From Pseudomonadota bacterium (GTDB lineage: Bacteria; Desulfobacterota; Desulfobacteria; Desulfobacterales; RPRI01), in the NCBI GenBank assembly GCA_043825875.1, contig JBDRRF010000038.1:26830-90829 (forward strand): a DNA stretch of 64,000 nucleotides. Direction: 5' to 3'. Within the stretch, counting starts at the first letter, position 1, and each line of letters begins with the position of its first letter. Below are positions 40,801 through 46,800 of this stretch, one piece after another. Position numbers: made by a program.

Positions 40801-43800
40801 GCATGATCATTTCCGATAACAATAGGTGTATTATCCATCTACAACTCCATGTTAAAATTATAACTATAATAAATGTATTGTTTATAATAAATTATGGAGG
40901 ATACATATATTATTGCATAACCGCAAGAAAAAAATCAGCTCCTGAAATTATTTGTGCTATACAGCCTTTATCAAAAATAAAAAAAATGCTTTTGTGAATG
41001 GTTGAAGAAAATATCGAACTAAGAACATTTCTTGCCACAAACTTAGGACAGATAGAAGCTGATATCAGTCAAACCAAACAGGTAATAATGAATCTTATTG
41101 TAAATGCCGGGGATGCCATGCCTGAGGGTGGAAAAATAACATTGGAAACCGAAAATGTGGATATAGATGAGAAGTAATTGATAAATAGAGGAAAGAGAAA
41201 ATATGAATTAAGCATAAAACTTCTTAAACAAGACTAGTGGTTATATTGATATAAAAACAGGGGCAAATTTCAGCGGGAGCTTATATAAGCTATAACATCT
41301 TTAACAGTGACAAGCGTTTCTGCGTCATCATCTGAAATCTCCATTTCGAATTCTTCTTCCATTGTCATAATAAGTTCAACCAGATCAAGAGAATCCGCTC
41401 CCAGATCATTTACAAAAGACGCTTCAGGCAAAACATCGGAAAGATCTACCCCAAGTTTATCTACAATAATTTTTTTTACTTTATCTTCAACTGACATCGA
41501 ATCTATTCTCCTAAAATTATCTTACATTTCACGTAACATTCAATTTCATTCTATATCAAGATAAGCTTATCGGATCAATTTAAAGGTGTGCTTTGAAGTA
41601 TTTTAAGAATAGTGCAGTTTTAACACTGCCAAATATTTTCTTACAAGACGGGTTATAACAAAAAGAATTACATATACATTCCTCCATTAACATGAATAAC
41701 TTGCCCAGTAATATAAGAAGCACCTTTTGATGCAAGGAAAATAACTGCTGCTGCAATATCTTCCGTTTTACCAATACGTCCAAGCGGAATACCGTTTATC
41801 AAGATTTCTTTAGCTTTTTCAGAAAGTGCTCCAGTCATGTCAGTTTCTACAAAACCGGGAGCAACGGCATTAACTGTTATATTTTTTGATGCAAGTTCTT
41901 TTGCAACAGCCTTTGTAAACCCTATTATACCGGCCTTTGAAGCAACATAATTAGCCTGCCCCGGATTTCCGCTTGCACCGACAACTGAAGATATATTTAT
42001 TATCCGGCCATATCTTTGCTTTATCATAGGCTTGGCAGCTATTTTAGTACACAGAAAGGCACCTTTCAAATTGGTATCAAGTACATCATCCCAATCTTTT
42101 TCTTTCATTCTAACCAATAGGCCATCTCTTGCAATACCGGCATTATTAACAAGAACATCAATTCTTTTGCTTTCTTCAAGTATTTTGCCGAAAAAAGATT
42201 CTACCTCTTGTCCCGACAACACATCAACCTGCATTCCTTTTGCAAATCCGCCTGCCTCACCAATTGTCTTTTCAAGTTCTTGTGCAGCAGAGGCAGATGA
42301 AGAATAGTTAAAATAAATGCGGGTATCAGGTCCTGCAAAAGCAAGACAAATTGCTCTTCCTATGCCTCTTGTTCCTCCGGTAATAACTACTGTTCGAGTT
42401 GTCTTGTCTGTTATATGATCAGGCATTATTATCTTTCAAAAATTATATCTGCCAATTTATCCATATCTGCCAGAATATTTTCATAACTTTGCATAAGCTC
42501 ATTATATGAAATGGCTTCCATAAAATCCGAGATTTGATTTTTATCAAAAATACCCGAACCAATTAAAATCTTATCTATATTATTTAGTATCAACCTTACG
42601 GTTTCATTGGCAAATATTCTTGATATAATCCTAAACTTTTCGGCCTCCTTGCTGCCATTTTGTATAAGTAAGGCAGATTTTCTGGCAAGGCTTGCGCCAA
42701 CTTCAACATGGGCCATCATATCGGAAAGCAAAAACATGATATACTGCTGTCTGGTAAGTTTATTTTCATGAACAAAGTTTATGGTATCGTTAAGAGCTTT
42801 AGCTGAAAGGCCGTAATAGCGAAATCCTGCATCTGTTATAGAGGAATTCAGTTTATCCATCTCATTTTTTATGGAAAGATAAAATTCACCTTTTGTTTTC
42901 CTCGACTTTTTCCAGCGGAATGTGCTTATAATATTTTGCTGAATTTCACTCGTTCCTTCGTATATACGAGTAATTCTAACATCTCTTTTAATCTTTTCAA
43001 TTTCATATTCAGCTATATACCCATATCCGCCAAGACCCTGAATTGCATCATCTGCTGCTTTATCAGCTGATTCAGTTGTAAAAAGCTTAGCGATTGAGCC
43101 TTCAACCTGGAGATCTTTTTCACCGGAATCAAGACGATGTGCAACTTCATCAATATATGCGGCAGCCGCTTCGGCTCTTACAACATGAGGAACAACGAGT
43201 TTATGTGTATACCCCTGTTTTTCGGAAAGAGGGGAACCAAATTGAATTCTTTGTTGTGCATAAGGGATAAGAATATTAAGAGATGCCTGTGCTGCGCCAA
43301 GCGCCATGGCTGCAACCATAACTCTTGTATATCCGAAAACCTTATTTGCCTGTTTTAAACCCTGCCCCGGAACCCCGCCGATAAGATTTTCAACAGGTAC
43401 AAAAACATCCTCAAACAAAAGAGGGGATGTATTCGATGCGCGTATTCCGTGTTTTTCTTCACCTTTACTCTGAATAAAACCTTTGGCTCCTTTTTCTACA
43501 ACAAAAAAAGCAGGGCCTTCCGGGGTATTGGCAAGAAGTGTGATAAAATCGGCATATCCACCGGTTGAAATAAACTGTTTGGTGCCATTGATTATATAAC
43601 CTGTAATCTTGCCATTCTCAGTTACTGGCTCAGCCTTTGTTTTCAAGGCTGCAAGATTACTTCCGGCATCTGCTTCCGTAACAGCGTATGCAACCAGAGA
43701 TGATCTGTTTGCAATTGCGCCAAGCCATTTCTCTTTCTGCTCTTCGGTACCCCCTACAAGCAGAGGATCTGCACCAAGCTGAAGAGCAAAAAATGCCGTT

Positions 43801-46800
43801 GTTATACCAAGGCAGATTTTTGACATCTCGAGTGTTAAATAACAGATGTCACGAGCTCCACCGCCCATACCGCCATAAGCTTCAGGAATTCCCAAAAGCT
43901 GCAAGCCTATTTCCGGGCTAAGCAATTCTCTTATCGTCTCTTCAGGAAAGAATTCCTTTTTATCAAATTCCAGAACTTTTTCTTTAGTAAGAACCCTGTT
44001 CCTTAACCGGTTAACAGTGTCCAAAATCATTTGTCTTGATTCGAGATCAAGCCCATAGAGTTTGATTTCTTTACCAGTTTCAGGTGAAACCATTAGACCT
44101 TACACCTCTTTTTGTTTGATAACTTCACGCTTATTGTAATATCCGCATTCCGGGCAAACCCGGTGTGCAGGTTTTGCCTCACCACACTGAGAGCATTTAG
44201 ATAAATTAATAGCTTCAATTTTCTGATGAGTACGACGTTTGTCACGTTTAGATTTGGATGTTTTGTGTTTTGGTACAGCCATAAATAAAATCCTAATATT
44301 AAAAAATCATTATTAAAAACCATTAACCTGCAATAGTACAAATTATCAAGATTAAGTAATTTAAATACATAAGATTGTCAAGAAATTTTGCATTTTATTT
44401 ATGGTTGATATTTTTTTTCGATAAGGTTCCATTTAGTTTTAAACCAATTCAAATGATTATAAGAACTTCAATTATATCTGACCACAAATCAATGGAGTAC
44501 TTTTAGACATATTATAAATATATACAAGAATATTGCTCCAAAATATTTTATATTGCATATTCTTTTTTTTTATTATAAATACACATATATTCATATTATA
44601 TGTTGATATATACCTTATTTTATTATGTTTTTACCTTATAACAAAGGAACCCTGAAATGAAGGGAAAGAAAGAAACAAAGGCCGGGCTTCTTTCAGAACA
44701 TTCAGATCTTGACACAAACAACCCGGCCCCTGCAAAACTCAAACAAAATACTCCTGCATGCTCCTCTAATGAAAAACAAGAATGGTATTATCTTTTGTTT
44801 AATAATATCAGCGATATCGCATTTGTAAATGAATGGCCTGATAAAACATATTTTCCGGGAAATTTTATTGAAGTAAATGACGCTGCCTGCGAGCAGTTAG
44901 GTTATACCAAAGATGAGCTTTTATTAATGACTCCTCCTGATATTGACAAAAAATTTGAGGCCACTTTTAATAAATCTGATATTCCGGAACTACTTTTAAA
45001 AAATAAGCAGGCTATATGGGAAGGCTTGGTTATAAACAAAGATGGCCGGGAAATGCCCGTAGAAATATATAGTAGTTTGTTTTATAAAGATAAAAAAACG
45101 TTTATTCTGTCAACTATAAGAGACGTCGGAGATCGAAAACAAGCGGAAGAAGCACTTAAAAAGAGTGAAGAAAGATATCATGACCTTTTTGAAAATGCAA
45201 ACGACGCAATCTATCTAACGGATGCAGATGGCAATATAAAAGAAGTCAATAATAAAGCGCTTGAATTACAGGGATATTCGCGTGAGGAGCTAATAGGAAC
45301 GAGCCTTTACGATCATATATCAGAAAAAAATTTGCCCTATTTTAAAAAGATTGTAATAAAATTTAAAAAAACCGGCACACACGATAGTTTTCTTGCAAAT
45401 ACAATAGCTAAAGACGGGCGGACACTTATTTTGGAACTTAGCGCATCCGCCATAAAAGAAGGAGACAATTATGTTGGTGCACTAACAATTGTGCGGGATA
45501 TTACTGATCGCATTATGGCTGAAAAGGCGCTGCGTGAAAGCGAACAGCGTTATAGAGATTTGGTTGAGAATTCACCAAATATTATTTATTCTTTTTCTGA
45601 TAAGAGGGGAGTAATCTTTTGCTCTTCACTCTACCAGGATATTTTGGGATATTCTGCAGAACAATTTACAGAAAACCTTTTTATATGGCGAACATATATT
45701 CATCCGGAAGATCATTATATAGTTTCTCAGGTTATTAAGTGTTTTTCAGAAGGCAAGCATTTTAATGTAGAATACCGTATTAAAGACAAGCAAGGAAAAT
45801 GGCATTGGTTTGAGGACAAATCTATAAGCATACGTAAAGAAAATGACGAATTTATTGTAAATGGCCTTATAACAGAAATCACTGAACGCAAAATGATGGA
45901 GCAAGAGATACGTGAATTGTCTATGCGTGACCAGCTCACTGAATTATATAATAGACGTGGATTCATCACCCTTGCTGAGCAGCAATTAAAATCTGTTAAA
46001 AGGACAAAAAAACAGATGACACTTTTATTCCTTGATGCGGATGATCTTAAAACAATAAATGATACCCATGGACATGAAGAAGGAGACAAAGCACTGTATA
46101 ACACGGCAGATATTCTCCGTCAGACTTTTCGTGAATCAGATATAATTGCCCGTATTGGCGGTGACGAGTTTGCGGTATTAGTCGTTGATTCAACAGATAT
46201 GAATTCTAAAATAATTACGCAACGACTTTGGCAAAATATAAATAATTTCAATACAAGCAAAGTTAGAAAATACAAACTTTCCCTGAGCTGGGGCTCCGCT
46301 ATTTACGATCCTGATTCCACACTCACATTGGACAAGCTTATGTCTATAGCCGACGGATTAATGTATACTCAAAAAAGAGCTAAAAAAAATATAAAAGATA
46401 ATAATTAATTATAATAATGAGCTGCATATGCTTACAAGAGTGTTTATTCATGGCCTCGAAAGCTCCGGAAAAGGGACAAAGGGAACATTTTTCAAGAAAA
46501 CATATCCTGACATGATAGTTGAGGACTTTTTAGGTAATTTTGAAGAAAGAATGCTAAAGCTAACTGCTGTTTTATCGAAAAAGGATGATCTTGTCATAGT
46601 CGGTTCCAGCTATGGGGGATTAATGGCTACTGTTTTTGCAAGTCGTACTTTAAATAAAATCAGAAAGCTTATTCTATTGGCGCCAGCCTTAAACCATATG
46701 CCCTTTGAATTTTTTCCTGAAAAGAGCTTGGATGTCCCTGTTTACATATATCATGGAAATCATGATGAAATTATCCCACATGGTCCGGTCCGTGAAATAG

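Follow-up and report, generated by a model that had tools for sequence, protein, structure and literature searches.

For Syntrophus, an electron flow from quinol through an electron-transfer flavoprotein (ETF) to an acyl-CoA dehydrogenase (ACAD) that reduces enoyl-CoA has been proposed (accessible text of PMC8805022), and an ordinary archaeal ACAD-ETF pair could, according to the accessible part of 10.1101/2024.07.05.601840, not run in reverse; the same part of that source gives about 56 kJ/mol as the energy released by NAD(P)H-driven enoyl reduction. TcsD, an ACAD acting on acyl carrier protein (ACP), is described in the available sections of 10.1101/736256 as lacking the adenine-binding Asp and the β5-β6 loop as in CoA-specific ACADs, and FabX of Helicobacter pylori is oxidative and needs oxygen (PMC8626469, available sections). 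In the accessible text of a review from 2022 on the enoyl reductases of bacteria (PMC9260719) the terms "acyl-CoA dehydrogenase", "FAD" and "flavoprotein" are absent, and among the literature matches listed, in which subscription journals are little covered, no ACAD was proposed as an enoyl-ACP reductase as judged by title and start of abstract. We found no such class of enzyme described in print.

The window, the whole stretch of 64,000 nucleotides from contig JBDRRF010000038.1 of a Desulfobacterales genome, carries the genes rpmF-ACAD-fabG-acpP in this order on the minus strand (Table 1), with gaps of 6 nt between rpmF and the ACAD gene, 2 nt between the ACAD gene and fabG, and 170 nt between fabG and acpP. 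Gene order, coordinates and the Pfam and NCBIfam names of all four genes agree with the first-pass annotation, which had placed the ACAD between rpmF and fabG-acpP. The fragment at the place of fabF presumably resembles a histidine-kinase ATPase domain, and fabF itself is found on contig C109 together with a second acpP and plsC. A scan for promoters and terminators gave results close to chance (23 sigma-70-type sites vs 15.6 ± 4.0 in shuffled sequences) and lends no support to a promoter function of the site upstream of rpmF. The earlier statement that PlsX is absent from this genome also holds for a search with the E. coli query, which gave no match; FabH and FabD are encoded elsewhere in the genome, and PlsB-like and PlsY genes are present.

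Table 1. Features of the rpmF-ACAD-fabG-acpP region (positions in the window)
Feature	Position	Strand	Basis
rpiB, opens the conserved downstream rpiB-glyA-dCMP deaminase-nrdR-rib-nusB run	40380..40838	-	annotation and loci of relatives
59-aa fragment at the place of fabF in most relatives	40998..41177	+	Pfam match sub-threshold only
acpP, acyl carrier protein	41270..41497	-	TIGR00517, 99 bits, over cut-off
fabG, 3-oxoacyl-ACP reductase, start 2 nt past ACAD stop	41668..42426	-	TIGR01830, 333 bits, over cut-off
554-aa flavoprotein of the ACAD family (long form), putative enoyl-ACP reductase	42429..44093	-	all three ACAD domains (N, M, C) by Pfam; VLCAD-like fold, TM 0.78-0.81
All-helical extension, residues 396-554, second copy of the C-terminal helical domain of ACADs	42432..42908	-	profile search; DSSP
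IYEG motif with catalytic Glu379	42954..42965	-	aligned with MCAD/Bcd
Gly254 at the position of the adenine-binding Asp	43332..43334	-	mapped by alignment
Shortened β5-β6 loop, residues 188-197 (10 residues vs at least 15)	43503..43532	-	alignment
rpmF, opening gene of the operon, encodes ribosomal protein L32	44100..44282	-	TIGR01031, 85 bits, over cut-off
Possible sigma-70 promoter, weak, 5' of rpmF	44456..44484	-	10/12 consensus matches

The ACAD of the window, here called the long form, matches PF02771, PF02770 and PF00441 over their cut-offs, corresponding to the N-terminal helical, middle β and C-terminal helical domains, and its AlphaFold model has a pLDDT of 92.8. The core superimposes on MCAD and SCAD with TM-scores of 0.90-0.95, and the whole chain finds VLCAD-like folds (PDB 2UXW, 8PHE, 3OWA and 2Z1Q) with 0.77-0.81. 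All specific NCBIfam models (AcrC, FadE, glutaryl-CoA and cyclohexanecarboxyl-CoA dehydrogenases, MbtN, RedW) score below their cut-offs, the best being AcrC with 272 vs 640 bits, and lower scores are seen for FadE (223 vs 600 bits), RedW (168 bits) and MbtN (34 bits). The catalytic Glu motif noted in the first-pass annotation aligns with the MCAD/Bcd position, the Glu is kept in all 76 long and short forms aligned, the short form being a related 385-aa ACAD found in the same slot in other families of the phylum, and the FAD-binding and catalytic residues are retained (E379, T139-E140, G144-S145, T222, R257, R282, G355-G356). Judged by the alignment, two features of CoA-specific ACADs of the MCAD/SCAD/Bcd type, the adenine-binding Asp and the phosphate-binding β5-β6 loop, are absent in 33/33 long forms. 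Gly254 stands at what we take to be the position of the Asp that binds the CoA adenine in ordinary ACADs; an Asp is found there in 0/33 long forms, 43/43 short forms and 20/39 paralogues, and the loop has 10 residues in 33/33 long forms, 15 in 43/43 short forms and at least 15 in 37/39 paralogues. The C-terminal extension of about 160 aa, also noted before, shows sequence kinship to the ACAD C-terminal helical domain, from whose duplication it arose; its profile scores best on residues ~234-367 of the short ACADs of the fab slot (E 9e-21), which points to a duplication separate from that of VLCAD, ACAD9 and FadE.

The long form is present in 87 of 151 genomes of the order (58%), in a single copy each and with 57-88% identity. 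Its surroundings were compared in 110 best-matching loci, namely the 30 best of the order search and the 80 best of 582, two sets that overlap partly: rpmF is located directly upstream in 95 (9 loci end at an edge), fabG directly downstream in 102, with a median of 2 nt from the ACAD stop to the first possible fabG start (n=99), and no etf gene adjoins the ACAD in any of them. Where order genomes lack the long form, 53 of the 56 rpmF loci compared hold no ACAD in the slot. The single-copy orthologs, the fixed rpmF-ACAD-fabG neighbourhood and the empty slot in many relatives, as first described, are thus all recovered; the claim of only one further hit in the phylum was too low, as 11 long forms are found in 291 phylum genomes outside the order, and the short form is common in the same slot. 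Nine genomes from three other families carry the long form elsewhere, with an empty slot, no FabI and no strong FabK match. Catabolic ACAD paralogues range from none to dozens per genome, and in G051, G099 and G104 (98% complete) the long form is the sole ACAD gene, with one ETF pair each in G099 and G104. One homologue, 64% identical, has fabA as its immediate downstream neighbour; it comes from a MAG whose gene order is not that of Desulfobacterales (1/110 loci), and 26 further close metagenome loci (of 46 returned) yielded no second ACAD-fabA pair.

Known enoyl-ACP reductases are as scarce in the order as had been noted, with FabI-like proteins in 7/151 genomes, FabV in 3/151 and FabK over the cut-off in 0/151. 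FabI and FabV are both missing from 81 of the 87 long-form carriers, six having one of them in addition; FabK over the cut-off occurs in 0/87, and 50/87 are also without a FabK-like match at E<=1e-70. FabK-like matches do not separate carriers (32/87) from non-carriers (34/64), p being 0.096 when G024 is counted among the carriers. Among 41 high-quality order genomes without the long form, 14 are also without FabI, FabV and a FabK-like match, hence a further unknown reductase must exist, which could also serve the carriers. FabI was found in 44 of 301 genomes of the phylum sample and FabK over the cut-off in 5, which leaves most sulfate reducers and syntrophs with no enzyme assigned to the last step of fatty-acid synthesis, and none of the 44 FabI-positive genomes has the long form. 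The present genome gave no match to a FabV query, consistent with the first-pass annotation. The sub-threshold NMO/FabK-like gene listed there does exist, at 270 bits, but is an orthologue of PA1024 (369 vs 228 bits) and was rejected as FabK. Besides this PA1024-like flavoenzyme, the genome encodes a FabX orthologue (260 bits), one MDR and 26 SDRs, among which a FabL may be present. A search for FabMG in five genomes found none, its positive control also being without a match. As substitute reductases, a 605-aa protein (in 17/151 genomes, 14 of them long-form carriers) and, for empty-slot Desulfobacterales, the short ACAD (in only 2/151 genomes) were rejected.

The short form fills the slot in 27/60 phylum loci, representing 17 families, and is followed by etfB-etfA in 19 of the 27. 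In a second order it is present in 21/22 genomes with fabD next in 21/21 loci, and a short form with EtfBA also occurs in two Desulfobacterales that lack the long form. Many operons have plsX and fabH adjoining it, fabH often directly upstream. The same slot contains a FabK-family gene in G176 (502 bits, over the cut-off) and G152 (372 bits). Among the informative genomes the short form is found in 23/40 FabI-negative vs 1/13 FabI-positive ones (Fisher p 0.003, a value overstated by kinship), and 17/40 FabI-negative loci have no slot ACAD; G357 has FabI together with the short form, and both ACAD forms occur in two f120 genomes. The short form is closest to clostridial Bcd (PDB 5OL2, 396 bits) and reaches 450-453 bits with the AcrC model (cut-off 640). 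Its EtfB matches CarD best and its ETFs show bifurcating-type motifs; two 4Fe-4S motifs are present in most of its EtfA proteins. The ETF that long-form genomes share is canonical in type. Two trees, both quick searches and the second omitting two long-branch paralogues, place the long and short forms as sisters (SH-aLRT 84 and 91); an AU test does not reject an alternative placement (p 0.226).

An ACAD in the core fatty-acid operon of bacteria without known last-step enzymes is probably an undescribed enoyl reductase, and we consider the long form a fairly likely candidate for an ETF-fed enoyl-ACP reductase. The anabolic role given to it in the first-pass annotation, as enoyl-ACP reductase or acyl-ACP dehydrogenase and not a β-oxidation enzyme, is still that of a candidate and gains support from the slot ACAD with EtfBA across the phylum, the FabK family in the slot, the near-exclusion from FabI genomes, the sole-ACAD genomes and the loss of CoA features. 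Against the reductase reading weigh the empty slot in many relatives, the order genomes with neither the long form nor a known reductase, the six carriers that have FabI or FabV as well, the FabX orthologue of this genome, the CoA-binding features kept by the short form and the archaeal ACAD-ETF pair described as unable to run in reverse. FADH2 would pass a hydride to the C3 atom of trans-2-enoyl-ACP, with Glu379 protonating C2, overall the reverse of the ACAD reaction, and an ETF would re-reduce the flavin. We infer the reductive direction, ACP as carrier and a VLCAD-like dimer for the long form; the electron routes are put forward more cautiously. The long form may use a canonical ETF encoded apart, in the etfBA-rimO-ispB-pgsA locus on contig C84, to which a membrane ETF:quinone oxidoreductase would pass electrons from menaquinol, in which case lipid synthesis would draw on the respiratory chain and not on NAD(P)H. 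The short form may work with its co-encoded CarDE-type ETF, which would take up NADH and reduce both enoyl-ACP and ferredoxin. A wider proposal, possible but one we would not yet rely on, is that ACAD-family proteins form a third structural class among enoyl-ACP reductases and close elongation in much of Desulfobacterota, with a short form that bifurcates NADH electrons to give reduced ferredoxin in each cycle, and a long form that is its ACP-specialised, domain-duplicated descendant running on menaquinol via canonical ETF.

The long form could instead be an acyl-ACP dehydrogenase for oxygen-independent synthesis of unsaturated fatty acids, converting decanoyl-ACP to trans-2-decenoyl-ACP for an isomerase by FabX-like backtracking. 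This would fit its ACP-type entrance, the canonical type of its ETF, the single fabA neighbour and the fact that known ACP-acting ACADs oxidise; it is unlikely, since the exclusion from FabI genomes and FabK in the slot would be left unexplained, a FabX orthologue is already present, the ETF of the short form is of the reductive CarDE type, and fabA is a neighbour in one of the 110 loci, with no second case in the 26 further metagenome loci. Reduction of CoA esters to give FabH primers (butyryl-, isobutyryl-, isovaleryl- or 2-methylbutyryl-CoA), or in the first C4 cycle only, is suggested by the short form, with its intact CoA-binding Asp and loop, its closeness to Bcd and AcrC and its frequent place directly after fabH. 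The loss of these features in every long form speaks against such a role, as does the alternation with FabI and FabK, which is not expected of a primer enzyme, and elongation would still be without a reductase; we regard it as improbable.

Many Desulfobacterales oxidise fatty acids, and an ordinary long-chain β-oxidation ACAD (VLCAD/FadE-like) hitch-hiking on a strong housekeeping promoter would agree with the VLCAD-like fold of the long form and its presence in over half of the order genomes. We judge this very improbable in view of the single copy at a fixed place, where catabolic paralogues vary in number, the three genomes without another ACAD, and the β-oxidation clusters of this genome, which carry ACADs of their own. 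According to the available text of PMC5947623, Syntrophobacter fumaroxidans cannot grow on butyrate or crotonate, and Sfum_1371, located between L32 (1369) and Etf-FabG-FabF (1372-1375), is abundant under all conditions; this protein, which we assign as the slot gene by gene order and not by sequence, tracks FabG in abundance (r=0.73 over 15 samples, from supplement rows of that paper), and such constitutive expression in a non-user of butyrate also argues against β-oxidation. The ACAD lies where E. coli has plsX-fabH-fabD, and together with the missing plsX match this could suggest a functional replacement of FabH or PlsX in chain initiation or acyl transfer. There is hardly any chance of this: replacement of FabH was rejected as FabH co-occurs in this genome, in the second order (over the cut-off in 5/5 tested genomes) and beside the short form, where plsX is also found, and this genome has FabD, PlsB-like and PlsY genes.

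An enoyl-ACP reductase of the ACAD family would close much of the phylum's gap and would bring a third fold into this group of enzymes, and energy would be saved in organisms near the thermodynamic limit, because of the energy that NAD(P)H-driven enoyl reduction releases. Annotation labels thousands of such ACAD genes as acyl-CoA or butyryl-CoA dehydrogenases of catabolism, and uncultured genomes may in this way be wrongly credited with fatty-acid breakdown. Carriers exist in culture, S. fumaroxidans among them, so that the idea can be put to a direct test.

Like Bcd-EtfAB (PDB 5OL2, 4L1F) and CarCDE (PDB 6FAH), which use electrons from ETF to reduce an enoyl thioester, the long form is an FAD enzyme of the ACAD fold with a C-terminal catalytic Glu. 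Those systems serve catabolism, take CoA esters as substrates and are encoded outside fab operons, and the long form, 36-38% identical to them, differs by the 160-aa duplicated domain, the missing CoA-binding features and the absence of an adjacent ETF; their co-encoded bifurcating-type EtfAB has its counterpart at 19 of the 27 short-form phylum loci. With FabI, FabL, FabV and FabMG (SDR-type) and FabK (FMN TIM barrel) the slot ACADs share the proposed reaction, the operon position of FabK and an alternating distribution, but their fold, that of ACADs, and their cofactor are unrelated, and an NAD(P)H-binding domain is missing from the long form. The ACADs acting on carrier proteins (TcsD, FkbI, MbtN and the prolyl-carrier dehydrogenases AnaB and RedW) have the same fold, and TcsD, in the available sections of 10.1101/736256, resembles the long form in the missing adenine-binding Asp and short β5-β6 loop; these enzymes oxidise, belong to secondary metabolism, and the MbtN and RedW models score far lower. 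VLCAD, ACAD9 and Bacillus FadE share the extra C-terminal helical domain and give the best whole-chain fold matches, but are only 24-27% identical, with a sequence match limited to the core. FabX of H. pylori (PDB 7E1Q) is likewise a flavin enzyme of core fatty-acid synthesis, converting acyl-ACP and trans-2-enoyl-ACP into each other, as proposed for the long form, but by the accessible text of PMC8626469 it is a TIM barrel with FMN and a 4Fe-4S cluster, and its orthologue in this genome is a separate protein.

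The acyl-CoA-dehydrogenase-family (ACAD) gene inside the rpmF-fabG-acpP operon is a real and conserved feature, and its product is best explained as a candidate enoyl-ACP reductase, a reading that on the sequence evidence is probable rather than certain. As the first-pass annotation had placed it, the 554-aa protein is encoded between rpmF and fabG-acpP, with spacers of 6 nt to rpmF and 2 nt to fabG; Pfam assigns the ORF to ACAD, and Glu379 is the catalytic Glu by alignment to MCAD. The protein scores below all specific NCBIfam cut-offs, and it belongs to the ACAD superfamily, to no named subfamily and to no known enoyl-ACP reductase class. 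The source genome (G000, 99.8% complete) has seven further ACADs, six of which match the core of the 554-aa protein at 32–39%, and nearly all named relatives come from Desulfobacterales.

Genes of the fatty-acid operon and the run behind it
Feature	Window position	Strand	Assigned by
rpmF	44100–44282	minus	
ACAD, long form, 554 aa	42429–44093	minus	Pfam
fabG	41668–42426	minus	
acpP	41270–41497	minus	
rpiB-glyA-dCMP deaminase-nrdR-rib-nusB run	beyond acpP	minus	

In G000 fabF is gone from the operon, with a 59-aa kinase-like fragment in its place (window 40998–41177), and is found on contig C109 (locus L120), where a second acpP precedes it and plsC follows. The interval from rpmF to the ribosomal-protein operon (44657–48673), taken up in most relatives by a divergent gltX, here contains genes for a PAS-GGDEF protein, a small hydrolase and a sigma-54 activator. 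Positions 662–8122 hold a locus for surface polysaccharide that twice pairs a gene for an FrhB-like Fe-S protein with one for a polysaccharide pyruvyl transferase.

The long form, i.e. the 554-aa type with a C-terminal extension of about 160 residues, is present in one copy at 57–88% identity in 87 of 151 sampled Desulfobacterales genomes. Among 110 best-match loci, taken as the 30 best order matches and the 80 best of 582 relatives with partly overlapping sets, rpmF immediately precedes the ACAD gene in 95 and another 9 stop at the upstream edge; fabG immediately follows it in 102, with 3 stopping at the downstream edge. A small subgroup is located away from rpmF, still with fabG-acpP-fabF, plus fabH and plsC. 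rpmF was found in 56 of the 64 order genomes without a long-form match, and 53 of these loci have no ACAD in the slot after rpmF, in line with the empty slots reported earlier for genomes without an ortholog; the remainder are G024, with a long form broken off at the contig end, and G007 and G082, with a 385-aa ACAD followed by etfB-etfA. Many empty-slot operons (L148, L159, L160, L166, L175, L178, L180, L188 and others) also lack fabG and/or fabF, the extreme being rpmF-acpP-rpiB, and these Desulfobacterales may organise fatty-acid synthesis in another way or at another place. In a MAG with otherwise non-Desulfobacterales-like genes, fabA comes directly after a long-form ACAD (64%; L110:7980–10240); the tree places this ACAD within the Desulfobacterales clade, making a transfer possible, and a homologue before fabA fits either reaction direction.

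A profile of the extension, residues 396–554, has short fab-slot ACADs (the short form, a related 385-aa type) as its nine top matches, through their C-terminal helical domain (best E 9e-21); the first paralogue is tenth (E 6e-16). The extension is therefore an internal duplicate. The predicted structure (pLDDT 92.8) has VLCAD-type chains as best whole-length matches. Q173, H297 and K367, a signature picked post hoc, are common to all 76 long and short forms and to none of 39 paralogues, and the two forms are sisters in trees with SH-aLRT 84 and 91. Under the AU test a tree that groups the long form with its nearest paralogues is not rejected (p 0.226), and common descent of the two forms is thus likely, not proven. 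Asp at position 254 is absent and the strand 5–6 loop is five residues shorter in 33 of 33 long forms, whereas the short form retains both the Asp and the full loop. The ACP-acting TcsD is marked, in the accessible portion of its description, by having lost the adenine-binding Asp and the strand 5–6 loop helix (10.1101/736256); by our own mapping of these features the long form resembles TcsD and the short form does not.

The first-pass annotation had counted a single further hit in Desulfobacterota; instead, the phylum search gives 11 long forms outside the order at 49–53% identity and two 387-aa ACADs at 44%. The latter sit in the operon rpmF-plsX-ACAD-fabD-acpP-fabF, and 21 of 22 genomes of the order from which they come have the gene, with fabD next in 21/21 loci, plsX before it in 19/21, and FabH encoded elsewhere in 5/5 tested genomes. 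Sixty rpmF loci were read, 43 from 44 FabI-/FabK-negative genomes taken in handle order (omitting G154, 66% complete, and the known carriers G163, G184 and G204), 11 from long-form carriers and 6 from genomes with FabK-like matches. A short ACAD lies within the fab operon in 27 of the 60 (17 families), with etfB-etfA after it in 19 of the 27. It occurs in 23 of 40 informative FabI-/FabK-negative genomes (three truncated loci and one genome without rpmF subtracted) or, by family, in 17 of 32 with no family mixed; in the control of 13 FabI-positive genomes (13 families) and 2 FabK-positive genomes only G357 has a short orthologue, a comparison in which kinship among genomes inflates any p value. 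At the short-ACAD position, ahead of fabD, a FabK-family gene is found in G176 and G152; nine long-form carriers (families f123, f141, f157) have an empty slot, no FabI and no strong FabK match, and two f120 genomes have both forms. Non-orthologous replacement at a single enzyme step would be expected to leave such a distribution.

These loci show several further gene arrangements. The gene after long forms outside Desulfobacterales (L223–L225, L227–L230) usually encodes a Ski2/Hel308-like DEAD/DEAH helicase, of which one was scanned, and what we take to be Mla-type lipid-transport genes are often nearby. In f98 (L357, L360) a gene resembling the LmtA lipid A phosphate O-methyltransferase, scoring below cut-off, separates etfB from etfA of the fab operon and is read from the opposite strand, and in f104 (L334, L345) the operon extends beyond fabF to include a gene with a thiolase domain and its BbsA-like (DUF35-type) partner.

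G000 has fabH, fabD, fabG, fabZ, fabF and acpP, and no match to FabI (best 28%), FabV or PlsX, all three of which had been called absent before. Its two NMO-family genes are orthologues of PA1024 (contig C83) and FabX, and an MDR gene on C66 is a further rival candidate for the reductase step. In the order sample FabI-like matches occur in 7/151 genomes, FabV in 3/151 and FabK over the cut-off in 0/151, and 50 of the 87 carriers lack FabI, FabV, FabK over the cut-off and any FabK-like match at E<=1e-70; in the phylum sample FabI is found in 44/301 and FabK over the cut-off in 5/301. This rarity indicates that the pathway hole is real, yet wider than the carriers. Of 41 high-quality order genomes with an empty slot, 14 have no FabI, FabV or FabK-like match and 24 have a sub-threshold FabK-like match as the only candidate; 17 of 40 FabI-negative phylum loci have no slot ACAD. 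The 14 are G037, G042, G043, G056, G061, G062, G080, G106, G113, G115, G126, G129, G145 and G148. Some further enoyl-ACP reductase thus exists, which speaks against the ACAD reading.

The FabX orthologue of this strict-anaerobe lineage has the cysteine cluster motif (L115:1474–2628, contig C65) and is neighboured by a sensor kinase-regulator pair and a TetR-like gene. The H. pylori enzyme requires oxygen, according to the part of PMC8626469 available, and FabX in an anaerobe might run in reverse. G240, though, has the slot ACAD with neither FabI nor any NMO-family match at E<=1e-20. A 605-aa protein (L037:5607–7421; also L045, L196–L205), present in 17/151 order genomes and absent from G000, has no Pfam or NCBIfam family; its gene adjoins plsC or sits between fabH and plsC, and it has a GGH motif and conserved cysteines. 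Its resemblance to the TIM barrels of FabX, PfaD and FabK is weak (Foldseek E ~3e-3; HHalign E 0.016), and related unnamed clusters occur in Bacteroidota and Ignavibacteriota. In G051, G075, G023 and G066 it lies beside a two-component pair resembling that next to the G000 FabX gene; it is possibly a further lipid flavoenzyme, as a lead only. Elsewhere in the lipid pathway, the whole genome of G000 gives no AccA match and only a weak AccD match, a 559-aa carboxyltransferase on C48 next to a biotin-carrier fusion, and C75 carries an AccC-like gene; a non-canonical carboxylase must supply the malonyl-CoA. The genome encodes PlsY and a PlsB-like protein but no PlsX, and two accessory ketosynthase-ACP-FabG-dehydratase clusters (C109:89281–94834 and C79:36804–55948) contain no evident enoyl reductase.

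A role in beta-oxidation, set aside already in the first-pass annotation, is further opposed by G051, G099 and G104 (98% complete), in which the slot gene is the sole PF00441 match. A single ETF pair is present in each of G099 and G104, at an etfB-etfA-rimO-polyprenyl synthase-pgsA locus shared with G051 and G000 (contig C84), with the neighbours named from their sequences. In S. fumaroxidans the order of tags is L32 Sfum_1369, 'butyryl-CoA dehydrogenase' 1371, Etf 1372–1373, FabG 1374 and FabF 1375, Sfum_1371 being equated with the slot ACAD from gene order alone; as far as the accessible text of PMC5947623 goes, it is abundant in every condition in an organism unable to use butyrate or crotonate, and is not tied by the authors to lipid synthesis.

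The ETFs of short-form operons have FAGADT, DGDTAQVG and RPAFGG motifs, mostly with two 4Fe-4S motifs as well, and their best match is CarD; we take these motifs as marks of bifurcating ETFs. The ETF common to long-form genomes lacks them and best matches Paracoccus and human ETF. The long form would be paired with this shared canonical-type ETF, judging from G099 and G104, each of which has a single ACAD and a single ETF. G000 has three membrane-type Fe-S oxidoreductases resembling the ETF-linked one of G204, and two adjoin etf genes. Enoyl/acyl-thioester couples lie at about -10 mV and menaquinone at about -74 mV, so that enoyl reduction by quinol is energetically favourable. For Syntrophus, a chain of this kind ending at enoyl-CoA is proposed in the part of PMC8805022 consulted. 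Against the reductive reading, an archaeal ACAD-ETF pair could not be made to run in reverse, as reported in the available portion of 10.1101/2024.07.05.601840.

Searches of the open literature and, by term, of the 2022 enoyl-reductase review (PMC9260719) showed no such enzyme, subscription journals being mostly outside this scope. For a candidate ACAD-type enoyl-ACP reductase the role would be new, the chemistry itself having precedent: the slot ACAD would act in the same way as Bcd-EtfAB and CarCDE, differing from them in the use of ACP thioesters, and would stand in for FabK, with which it shares the operon place and the proposed step.
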